Assembly (NCBI RefSeq): GCF_035084215.1
Contig: NC_090359.1
Span: 20,832,001 to 20,896,000, forward strand
Direction of reading: 5' to 3'
Length of the DNA stretch: 64,000 bases
From: Heptranchias perlo
Taxonomy: Eukaryota
Positions 2,138-26,948 of this stretch are shown here, piece after piece (within the stretch, counting starts at the first letter, position 1; the number at the start of each line of letters is the position of its first letter). The position numbers and the translations under genes were made by a program. Under the pieces are notes generated by a model. That model searched no databases. It was not told the DNA's origin and saw only the letters and a program-made list of their open reading frames with translations.

Positions 2138-4967
2138 CTAGTTGAACTGTGTTTGCTTGTGTTTCCTGTACAGGAACAAGGCGATCAAAGAAGCAGAGAT
2201 CAGAGAGACAGCGCTCACAGTCAGGGCCAAAATCAGGACCACCTCAGACTCCACACCTAAAAAGCAACAAGAAACCAATGGTTAGAGAAGGAAATACTGA
2301 GGGGAAAATGGAAACTAGCAGTCGGCCAACTCACCACCTGGAGACCTCTCCTGCATCCTTTGCTCAACCTCATTAAGGGGCTCAGTTGCCAGGTCTGTCA
2401 CATCAGGATCCAGAATGACCAGGGGTCCAAGTGAGGCCTCACCCTCCCACTTCAATTCAGCATCACTCTCTGCAATATCAAACATTCCAGTTAGAGAGGG
2501 TAAAGGGGGACCTCCAACATAGAGAGGATCAATGTCCTACCAGGTCCAGATACAAGATCCCTCCTTCCTCTGGAATCAAATCGGAATTCCCTCGTGACAC
2601 TGCAGTTGTCCAGATGACAACAGGCACATACATCATTGGTCGATTCTTCCAATGGGGTCCAGCTAAACCAGAGAATCAGTTTATCAACCAGGTTGTGCAT
2701 CACTTCACACAACACATCCCCGTGGGAGAAAGGGAACTTACACATTCTGCATCTTGTGGAAAGTACAAGCTTTGTTCATGGAATCTCTCCGATCCACTGC
2801 AGCAACTTTCAGGTGACAGGTGATGAAAATCTGAGGGACACATTCAATACAAGTTGTTATTCAGTGACTCCCCTCCCAACATGGGGAACCCAATGATCGG
2901 CTTCCTCTTACCAGGGAACGGTCATCTCCAAAGAAACGGAACGCATCCAGGTCAAACTGGAGTTTGTCCAGCTCACGTTCATCTCTGGGCAACACAAAGG
3001 TTGAAAAGGAGTCCTCGGCTTTGCTGTCCAGGAGGCAACTGAAGAGTCAAAAAAAAAGGGCCATGAAGTGAATCAAGTGAAGCCATTGAGAGGAGAGCAG
3101 CTGGAGAAAGCAGAGAGCTCCTTACCCATTGTAGTCAATGATGTTGTATCTTGGGGTGGAATCCTTGTCTGGGCTCAATGTAGCTGCACAGCTGTCAATG
3201 TAGAGCTTCAGGGGCATGTGGTTGGTCATTGAAACAGAGGCCTCAATGTGAATGAGGTCACCCAGGTAGTAGACAGTCGAGGTGCGCTCTGTAAGCCAAT
3301 CATCTGATGAACAAGAGTTGGAGTCAGTGGGTGTAACTCCCATTGGACAACGACAGGAAAGTCCTCCCCGTCCACCCATCACATACCATTCATTAGACGC
3401 AGTGAGAATGACAGAAGCCCTTCTCCAGACTTGGTCGAGCTGAATGGGATCCAGGTGGGCTTGATGGGGTTACTGCTCACATTGCCCTTCCTGGAAAGGA
3501 CAGTGGACTCATTTTAGGATAAGTTCAGAGAACTACAGCAGCTGTAGATCAGATTTGCGACAGAGTAAAGATTCTTACCTCAAATAGTGGCACTGGATGG
3601 GAATGACAGCTCCATTCGTTCTCACAATGACTGATCCACCAGCATTTGGGGTGTGGTTCAGGTGGGTGGTGTAGACCAGGAAATCTCCAGCCATCTGAAA
3701 GACATCAGGTGAAGGAATGAAGAGCTGGTCTCATTGGACAAAAGCTATTTCTGGTCATTTTCCTGCCCTGTTAAGCAGCAGTTTGAGGGGTTTCAGTTGC
3801 TCCCCAATGACACATAATTGAAGCAGCTCCACCATTGAGTGAAGTTGCCTGGAGCAGCCTCTGTTACTCTGCTCAGTCCACCTTCTATTACAGGGGACTT
3901 CAGGCCTGCAGTCAGAAACCCTGAAATGATTTGGCTCGGCCAGGTTAGATGAGAATTCTACCCTATATAGAATAGAGCTTCCACCGTAAGGGGCTTCAAT
4001 TGACCCCTGGGATGGAGCACTAAACACAACATCACTTTTAAACCTCATCTGTGTCCGTGGAATCACGGAGGGGGTCGGCAGGTCTAAGAACCAAAAGTGG
4101 AGTTCCCCTTTAATACATTGTAGCCCAATTATCCCACTAGTTTAGTCTTTCAAGAGAAGTCCCAACAGGTTCGACAACACTGAACATCCATTGACCTGAA
4201 GTTGAGGCAACAGACCAGAATATCCATGAGAAGGAAAAGGATAAATCTACAGAGGCACAAAAGGAAGGACTTGTTTGGGGAAATGTAGGTGAAGGTGCAA
4301 GGCCAATAGAATTGAAAATCAAAGTTAGAGAATAGGAAAGACCAGTTAAAGAAAGTTGTAGAGTCTTGGAGACAAATTAGAATCTTTTAAAGATAAAAGA
4401 AAAGAGACATGTTAACAAAGTAGTTTCACACAGGGCGATAGTTAACATTGCAAGAACCTGTACAGGGATTGGAGGAAGAGTTCAGGGATCTCCTCAAACT
4501 AAGTGGCTGGAGTTTCACCCGATGTTCATGAGTTCAGAGTGAGGAGTAATCTACACAGGGAAATTGGAGCAAGAGTTGAGGAATCACATTACCTGCAATC
4601 TGCTGCCACATTCATGGAGCCCATAGTCAAAGAGGACAGTGTGGTTCTGAGAGTAGATCCCAGTTGGCCGACAACCTGCTGTCCCCAGGGTCAGGTCAGC
4701 AGCTTTAATCAGGTGCCTGGTTCTAAATAAATCCATGTCTACCCTCACCAGGAGGTTCTGCTCTCCACACTGCACCATCACAGTCTGCAGTGGGGACAGA
4801 CTTCTCCCCTCAGACAGGCTGAAATGGGAACCAAAGGGAGGGGCAGGAGTGGCCTTCTCAATGTTCCATGGGAAGTCCCTGTTTCTAAACCGCTGCCAAG
4901 TATCAGAGCAACAAACAGCTCCGACCAAAACCAACAGAGAAACCAAACCCTTCACTAGTTGCCCCAT
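2138..4967 (-). CDS. ZP3: Zona pellucida sperm-binding protein 3-like, copy 1 (9 exons, 454 aa)
   Basis: GT-AG exons 4967-4593, 3694-3579, 3490-3387, 3303-3126, 3038-2912, 2830-2742, 2662-2541, 2469-2335 and 2256-2138 join in frame (1365 nt). Signal peptide; ZP-N (VMVQCGE...DLTLG..GC...LHECGS; IPIQCHY); linker [17 protein letters not shown] ([40 protein letters not shown]); furin site RGRR; external hydrophobic patch [10 protein letters not shown] helix; TAG. Confidence 0.95.
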
Positions 4968-5017
4968 AATACAAACTATTACAGCTCAACTGGGAACTGA
5001 AGGGAGTCACTGATCCC

Positions 5018-5071
5018 TTTTATACACAGCCTGTAGTCAGTCACCTGACACCAATTGGATAAACGACCAAT
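5018..5071 (-). promoter_or_regulatory. ZP3 proximal promoter: TATA box, E-box, CCAAT boxes (same in copies 2 and 3)
   Basis: TATAAAA 5018-5024 about 50 nt upstream of the ATG, CAGGTG 5042-5047, palindromic CCAATTGG 5051-5058, CCAAT 5067-5071. The first three are also conserved in the divergent copy-4 promoter. Confidence 0.75.
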
Positions 5072-26834: not shown

Positions 26835-26878
26835 GATACCAAACAACTCAACTATCACTTTACTGACCAACCAGCACC

Positions 26879-26948
26879 TTTTATACACAACCTGCACTCA
26901 CCTGACTCCAATTGGACCAGATGAGGCTCAACGAGATCGATAGACTAA
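26879..26948 (-). promoter_or_regulatory. ZP3 copy-4 promoter (TATA, E-box, CCAAT)
   Basis: TATAAAA 26879-26885, CAGGTG 26899-26904, CCAATTGG 26908-26915. tagactaa (26941-26948) is shared with copies 1-3 despite divergent flanks. Confidence 0.75.

Follow-up and report, generated by a model that had tools for sequence, protein, structure and literature searches.

A 64,000-nucleotide stretch of the genome of the shark Heptranchias perlo (NCBI RefSeq assembly GCF_035084215.1, contig NC_090359.1, positions 20,832,001 to 20,896,000; hereafter, the window, with coordinates counted from its first base) harbors four tandem genes for the egg-coat protein ZP3, numbered here c1 to c4 from left to right. 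Sequence comparison indicates that these copies are not equivalent: c1, c2 and c3 carry one type of head, by which we mean the promoter and the first ~ 46 codons, and c4 carries another, although the bodies of all four genes, comprising exons 2–9, the introns and the 3′ flanks, are homogenized with each other and nearly the same, and the two heads come from two old lineages that are shared across shark species. We refer to the heads as the Q head (c1–c3) and the D head (c4), labels that are our own. Thus, c1–c3 combine a Q head with a D body, while c4 combines a D head with a D body.

Results

Compared with c1–c3, c4 differs at 38 of the 137 coding bases that open exon 1, but at only 2–4 of the following 238. 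The Q head of c1 (4834..4967, minus strand), which encodes the signal peptide and the N-terminal extension (codons 1–45/46), is identical in c2 and c3, while the D head of c4 (26674..26834, minus strand) encodes a Pro/Gln/Arg-rich extension that is 9 amino acids longer. A nearly identical head is present in P0085 (XP_067828161.1), a H. perlo gene with a Q-type body. The c1 and P0085 proteins are identical at 45 of 46 residues of the head and at 144 of 203 residues in codons 126–330, whereas for c1 and c4 the corresponding values are 28 of 46 and 204 of 205. The ZP (zona pellucida) modules of Q and D bodies are ~ 71% identical. The inferred exchange interval lies in exon 1 (codons ~ 47–103; 4658..4833, minus strand), bounded by the final site diagnostic of the heads and by the first c4-like residue that is not shared with P0085. 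A mis-spliced P0085 model was ruled out as the cause of the mosaic, since exon 1 of P0085 ends in Q-type residues.

Heads and bodies were placed in separate trees of 37 sequences (33 hand-picked proteins with intact N-termini plus c1–c4; LG+G4 model without mixture), for which the groups were fixed before the trees were built. In the head tree, all seven Q heads, from three shark species, formed one clade (100/99), and a single clade of H. perlo and window sequences was rejected (approximately unbiased test, p-AU 0.011). In the body tree, c1–c4 formed one clade (96/91) nested within the H. perlo D genes (99/95), the Q-headed gene of the horn shark (Heterodontus) joined the horn shark D genes (95/89), P0085 joined the Q genes of the sawshark (Pristiophorus; 100/100), and a single clade of Q-headed sequences was rejected (p-AU 6e-39). 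The initial annotation of this DNA, made from its letters alone, had described the locus as being under concerted evolution and had proposed a phylogeny against chondrichthyan ZP3 paralogues as a check. Its description fits the D bodies, which are closer within species and group with the H. perlo D genes, but not the heads, which span species and fall into two lineages.

The age of the two bodies was assessed in a tree of codons 126–350 from 45 sequences (41 hand-picked proteins plus c1–c4), including those of chimaera, coelacanth and amniotes. The D clade united sharks and rays (100/100) and the Q bodies fell outside it (96/97), which argues that Q and D bodies split before sharks and rays diverged. 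When 210 shark proteins were typed with head and body motifs chosen after the alignment had been viewed, 13 had a Q head and a Q body, 72 a D head and a D body, six a Q head and a D body (c2 and five horn shark proteins), none a D head and a Q body, and 119 no recognizable head. A tree of exon 1 codons 47–125 was poorly resolved, with 5 of its 28 branches starred. A protein search that used the head alone as query returned three proteins and missed known horn shark Q heads; therefore, it has no bearing on absence.

The five horn shark models with a Q head and a D body (P0006, P0008, P0239, P0240 and P0244) have neighboring accessions (XP_067879911–917) at the top of the accession range seen on one 19.5 Mb Heterodontus contig, hinting at a contiguous block of such genes at one end of a cluster. 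In Pristiophorus, the D-body genes P0068 and P0071 have an exon 1 ending in Q-type residues and possibly represent another exon 1 exchange. A sequence labeled Salmonella enterica (P0010, from a 1415-bp contig) fell within the ZP3 sequences of galeomorph sharks when bodies were compared in the tree and is probably a mislabeled or contaminant shark sequence.

Self-comparison of the window revealed four homologous units within positions 1–26916, with unrelated repeats and satellites farther to the right. The exons of c1 were annotated by eye on the minus strand and then projected onto the other copies. The c1 gene (4967–2138, minus strand, 454 amino acids) consists of exons 4967–4593, 3694–3579, 3490–3387, 3303–3126, 3038–2912, 2830–2742, 2662–2541, 2469–2335 and 2256–2138. 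The remaining copies, also on the minus strand, are c2 (11395–8551, 460 amino acids), c3 (20114–17288, 454 amino acids) and c4 (26834–23980, 463 amino acids), the last of which lies at the edge of the array and is the first in transcription order. All 32 introns are of the GT–AG type, and each gene has nine exons with neither frameshifts nor internal stops; the four complete nine-exon genes in the same orientation that had been reported at the outset are therefore real. In c2, the stop codon is lost and the reading frame runs six residues longer. We rejected the interpretation of c2 as a pseudogene because its frame is open and its protein is identical, at 460 of 460 amino acids, to the H. perlo RefSeq protein XP_067827931.1, a match that also bears out the cartilaginous fish source guessed from the sequence. 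No ZP3 match other than c1–c4 was found within the window, and the presence of more ZP genes to the right of c4 was rejected accordingly. Positions 1–6651 match positions 15091–21796 at 96.3%; therefore, the array probably continues to the left of the window, with a further copy there.

The affiliation of these genes with ZP3 is supported by several lines of comparison. Pfam searches detected only a ZP-N (67–162, PF23344) and a ZP-C domain (187–323, PF00100), with no trefoil or extra ZP-N domain. The closest solved structure was chicken ZP3 (PDB 3NK3/3NK4, E 2e-102), and the matches to a second ZP3 (8BQU, 7e-70) and to ZP2 (9e-4) indicate that ZP3 is, of the ZP subunits, the one nearest to these proteins. 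Among the 75 matches of a protein search with exon 1 (70 labeled as sharks or rays, four as mammals and one as Salmonella), 74 carry the name ZP3 or ZP3-like. The ZP module region contains 12 Cys in all four copies (residues 67–350 in c1–c3 and the equivalent positions in c4), the number present in chicken ZP3, where the ZP3 pattern comprises four Cys in ZP-N and eight in ZP-C with a ZP3-type C-terminal cluster (PMC8362008). The hallmarks listed for ZP3 are a signal peptide, a furin site, an external hydrophobic patch and a transmembrane (TM) segment (PMC8391237). Motif matches located the RGRR furin site and the hydrophobic patch in all four copies, and hydropathy revealed in each a C-terminal, putative TM segment (Kyte–Doolittle 19-mer 2.45–2.46) and an N-terminal segment that is a putative signal peptide, so that the furin site, patch and TM helix of the initial annotation were all recovered. 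By analogy with the ZP family (PMC8391237), each gene would encode a signal-peptide-bearing, membrane-anchored precursor, and a furin cut at RGRR would release the hydrophobic patch and allow the ZP module to polymerize with partner ZP proteins in the primary egg envelope. Sharing both domains, the Cys number and these motifs with vertebrate ZP3/ZPC as represented by chicken ZP3, the shark genes differ from it in being multicopy and in their N-terminal extension, which varies and occurs in two types.

In all four copies, the upstream DNA contains CCAATTGG, CAGGTG and TATAAA, and the poly(A) signal AATAAA lies downstream. The core promoter of c1 (5016..5059, minus strand) includes a CCAAT box (5051–5058), an E-box (5042–5047) and a TATA box (5019–5024); the Q-type core promoters of c2 (11444..11487) and c3 (20163..20206) and the D-type core promoter of c4 (26877..26916), all on the minus strand, share this CCAAT/E-box/TATA block. 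Between Q and D promoters, the 44-bp core containing the E-box is conserved (local score 54 versus a maximum of 31 in 200 shuffles), but farther upstream the sequences cannot be aligned, and within 300 bp the Q promoters have six CCAAT/ATTGG sites and c4 has one. The promoter architecture proposed earlier for all copies is thus present in four of four and, moreover, is conserved between otherwise unalignable promoters. No full palindromic estrogen element was found in the 3 kb upstream of any of the four copies. A literature search yielded no paper giving the exact site of FIGLA or the CCAAT promoter of zebrafish zp3.

Across all six copy pairs, introns differ by 1.95–3.24% and exons 2–9 by 1.1–2.0%, and the spacers are ~ 94–96% identical to one another, in agreement with the near-identity of introns and spacers noted initially. 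A 27-bp variable number tandem repeat (VNTR) is present in the spacers in 5.5 (6500..6648), 7.7 (12908..13114) and 15.6 copies (21645..22066). Self-comparison also revealed an insertion of ~ 2.3 kb in the c2–c3 spacer, in the 3′ flank of c3 (14198..16493, plus strand), the right part of which is found again in the flank 3′ of c1 (1–~ 1400); the insertion is absent behind c2 and c4. We take this insertion to be similar to a long interspersed nuclear element; Pfam gave no match for it. Each copy has 21–35 private sites. The 28 informative sites support all three possible copy pairings (13, 8 and 7 sites), which suggests later reshuffling among the copies.

Because all six pairs differ by 2–3% in their introns, none of them being allele-like, we conclude from sequence divergence that c1–c4 are true paralogues, as the initial annotation had assumed, and not alleles. 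In DNA run X1, the four array contigs listed have depths of 45.5–62.8 and the four flank contigs 7.6–10.8, with 541–829 at exon positions, although contig depth in this run does not equal copy number and offers a hint only. The X1 flank contigs match the window at all but 1 of 1431 bases.

Over the 406 codons common to the copies, the ratio of nonsynonymous to synonymous differences (pN/pS) was 0.22–0.51 in all six pairs. Exon 7, which lies next to the furin site and was chosen as a region after the data had been viewed, contains 8 of the 17 amino-acid-changed codons within 41 of the 406 codons (binomial p 1e-4). A claim of positive selection acting on exon 7 was rejected, since a ratio of eight nonsynonymous codons to one synonymous codon equally fits relaxed constraint.

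Transcription was assessed in two runs, X5 and X6, which we guessed to be RNA and which consist of contigs; the signal is family-wide at a likeness of at least 97%. At least six of the eight predicted introns had spliced joints in X5/X6 among the 15 joints listed, with 295 more joints outside this list. Values in X5 reached 12,000–57,000 in exon bins versus 0.27 in an intron-only bin, and in X8, from the same sample as X5, they were 2–46 in the same exon bins. Thus, the ZP3 family is transcribed and spliced. One X5 contig (19858–19928) matches only c3 of the four copies, another matches only the 3′ flank of c4 and a third a Q head, although these copy-specific bases may be common to paralogues outside the window. 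In X6, which is from another organism, spliced and very deep contigs at least 97% like these exons were present.

The array is part of a much larger family. At least 47 distinct ZP3-like proteins, some of them isoforms or partial, were found in H. perlo, and a single 29.8 Mb contig encodes at least 35 of these (with the largest cluster listed short of 23 members). At least 34 were found in Pristiophorus, 25 in Heterodontus, 22 in Mustelus, 20 in Stegostoma and 17 in Chiloscyllium punctatum, all of these counts being of protein models, not genes. The amplified array described in the initial annotation therefore exists as a four-copy array but is not special: it is a small, marginal part of a cluster with dozens of members, and amplification is common to many sharks. 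No exact match to c1, c3 or c4 was present among the 47 H. perlo proteins listed (again with 23 members of the largest cluster unlisted). Of the 47 H. perlo models listed, 37 have no recognizable head, and those inspected start from an internal exon 1 Met. Truncated annotations are probably frequent among the H. perlo RefSeq ZP3 models. In exon 6 (2830–2742 in c1), three residues are kept in all four copies, absent in H. perlo P0003 and P0102 and present in the horn shark, a pattern indicating that the c1–c4 subarray was homogenized apart from the main H. perlo family (91–94% identity).

The 37 kb to the right of the array are repeat-dense and apparently gene-free. An 11-kb satellite (41868–52857) consists of 279 copies of a 39-bp unit with a 91% match, and further tandem arrays occupy 32219–33642, 54036–55524 and 60297–64000, with units of ~ 63–67, 24/29 and 45 bp. 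A GC- and CpG-rich segment (27437–28640), 600 bp upstream of c4, contains a plus-strand frame of 235 codons that, we assume, resembles ORF1 of Tx1-type retroelements. Pfam gave no match for any of the six repeat-like open reading frames, this one included, and Rfam gave none in the window.

Discussion

Tandem amplification of ZP3 is known in itself. The initial annotation had pointed to tandem zp3 copies in some teleosts, and the published catfish clusters contain 20–22 tandem ZP3 genes with ovary- and oocyte-specific expression (PMC13704971). Like the shark genes they are tandem, with pseudogenes mixed in, and a dosage explanation has been proposed for them (PMC13704971). The shark cluster differs in having TM-bearing genes and two head lineages on one homogenized body, and the catfish paper never uses the words "gene conversion" or "concerted". 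The c1–c4 array is also in part already annotated, since RefSeq holds shark clusters: c2 is among the elasmobranch "ZP3-like" models of RefSeq/UniRef, in which the family is expanded in many sharks, but these models are automatic and unanalyzed with respect to head and body. A literature search that left most subscription papers outside its reach found no description of shark ZP3 clusters of dozens or of chimeric ZP3 genes, and the excerpts of PMC6262864, PMC13361971 and PMC8455134 contain no statement on either.

Has copy number been selected for dosage? Dosage selection, put forward in the initial annotation, would be one explanation. Neutral turnover of a recombination-prone cluster, which would be compatible with either of the routes of origin considered below, is a possibility that we regard as worth keeping although the odds are against it. 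Short or partial models are numerous in H. perlo, and in teleosts the relationship between ZP copy number and chorion thickness was not significant (rho 0.286, p 0.493; PMC13704971). On the other hand, all four copies are intact with pN/pS below 1, large ZP3 families recur across many sharks, and two runs contain transcripts of the family at very great depth.

With regard to the origin of the mosaic, we lean, with moderate confidence, toward anti-Lepore-type unequal crossing-over in exon 1 followed by amplification. The starting point would be an ancestral tandem pair in which a c4-like D gene was followed downstream by a P0085-like Q gene. Misalignment of this pair via the near-identical stretch of exon 1 would allow unequal crossing-over to insert a fusion of Q head and D body between the parents, which would bring a Q promoter in front of the D-type ZP module; more unequal crossing-over would multiply the unit (from exon 1 to exon 1 of the next gene, 6.4–8.7 kb), and conversion would reshuffle the copies. 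The D head occurs only in the first gene in transcription order, and c3, c2 and c1 have Q heads with c4-like bodies and flanks, so that a gene of the 3′-donor type lies upstream of the fusions, as the anti-Lepore layout requires; likewise, the 5′ and 3′ parts of c1–c3 are discordant in paralogue affinity. A single crossing-over event would account for the near-identical Q head as well as for the identity of the whole unit.

The model for this route is provided by the anti-Lepore HBB/HBD fusion genes of laurasiatherian mammals, in which the 5′ part of the downstream gene is joined to the 3′ part of the upstream gene and the fusion is sited between its parents (PMC4041002). Those fusions were re-duplicated and originated repeatedly, and the reciprocal fusion is missing (PMC4041002), features that the shark case would share. 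However, the family is unrelated, the shark parental bodies (~ 71% identical) split before sharks and rays did, and the downstream parent is placed by contig only.

Several observations weigh against the crossing-over route. In codons 47–125, c4 and P0085 agree at 74 of 79 residues; the Q-body gene thus resembles shark D genes more in its exon 1 than in its body. Q heads share more residues with D heads (28 of 46) than heads of either type share with those of rays (17–22 of 40–43), from which it follows that the Q head would be younger than the Q body. In the horn shark, none of the 25 proteins retrieved has a Q body, and P0085 is placed only to the shared 29.8 Mb contig, not relative to the window. 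The head tree rests on 55 columns only, and the outside sequences are all automatic protein models, 119 of 210 lacking a usable head. The clustering of informative sites into tracts, with a p of 0.012 unmerged, loses significance once neighbors are merged (p 0.15). Finally, the direction of exchange is deduced and not proven.

Some of these observations fit an alternative that we consider unlikely but serious: the Q-head/D-body combination could be an old class inherited from a shark ancestor, whose body was kept c4-like by conversion and unequal exchange while the head escaped, the Q-body gene being the recipient of the head. The combination exists in both Heptranchias and Heterodontus, which we take to be separated by the main shark split; Heptranchias and Pristiophorus were the only genera to yield Q bodies; and the Q head seems to be of later origin than its body. 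Nevertheless, the identity of 45 of 46 residues with P0085 would need a separate recent conversion, all 13 headed Q-body proteins, from two species, have a Q head, and whole spacers are as alike as unit duplication would make them.

Where the proteins are made is a further question. The records of the RNA runs name no tissue, a point in favor of sources other than the ovary, but the ovary is probable since the TM segment is kept, the full estrogen palindrome is lacking in the 3 kb upstream, and the only promoter block shared by Q and D genes contains an E-box, a candidate FIGLA site. The array would be expressed in oocytes, as the initial annotation had read it. Main expression in follicle cells, liver or another tissue appears improbable. 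Fish ZP genes can indeed be hepatic and mammalian ones follicle-cell-derived, but the TM segment retained here is lost in the liver-made ZP3 of stickleback (PMC8362008); furthermore, expression of the amplified ZP3 genes of catfish is confined to oocytes, and the same paper states that ZP genes are under FIGLA/E-box control (PMC13704971). The lack of the estrogen palindrome at all four copies also speaks against this alternative. CAGGTG is, however, a general basic helix-loop-helix site, which takes some weight from the E-box.

An assembly artifact in which alleles were placed in tandem is highly improbable, since the insertion common to c1 and c3, as alleles might have, stands against intron divergence in all six pairs, private sites in each copy, three spacers unlike in VNTR count and insertion, and the greater contig depth of the array in X1, the last being a hint only.

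Conclusions

Taken more widely, the data allow a scenario that we put forward as speculative and would not ourselves expect to hold in full: two ancient ZP3 paralogues would repeatedly swap promoter and exon 1 in the anti-Lepore manner, independently in Heptranchias and Heterodontus, so that one module would come under two promoters (with one versus six CCAAT sites) and carry two extensions, serving different oocyte stages or envelope layers, and exon 7 may diversify. Shark clusters of dozens of members suggest that ZP3 amplification is not a teleost peculiarity. The mosaic shows, in a clean form open to testing, how regulatory and N-terminal parts can be shuffled on a homogenized egg-coat module, and it cautions that for shark ZP3 both expression counts and trees built from whole proteins will be misleading.

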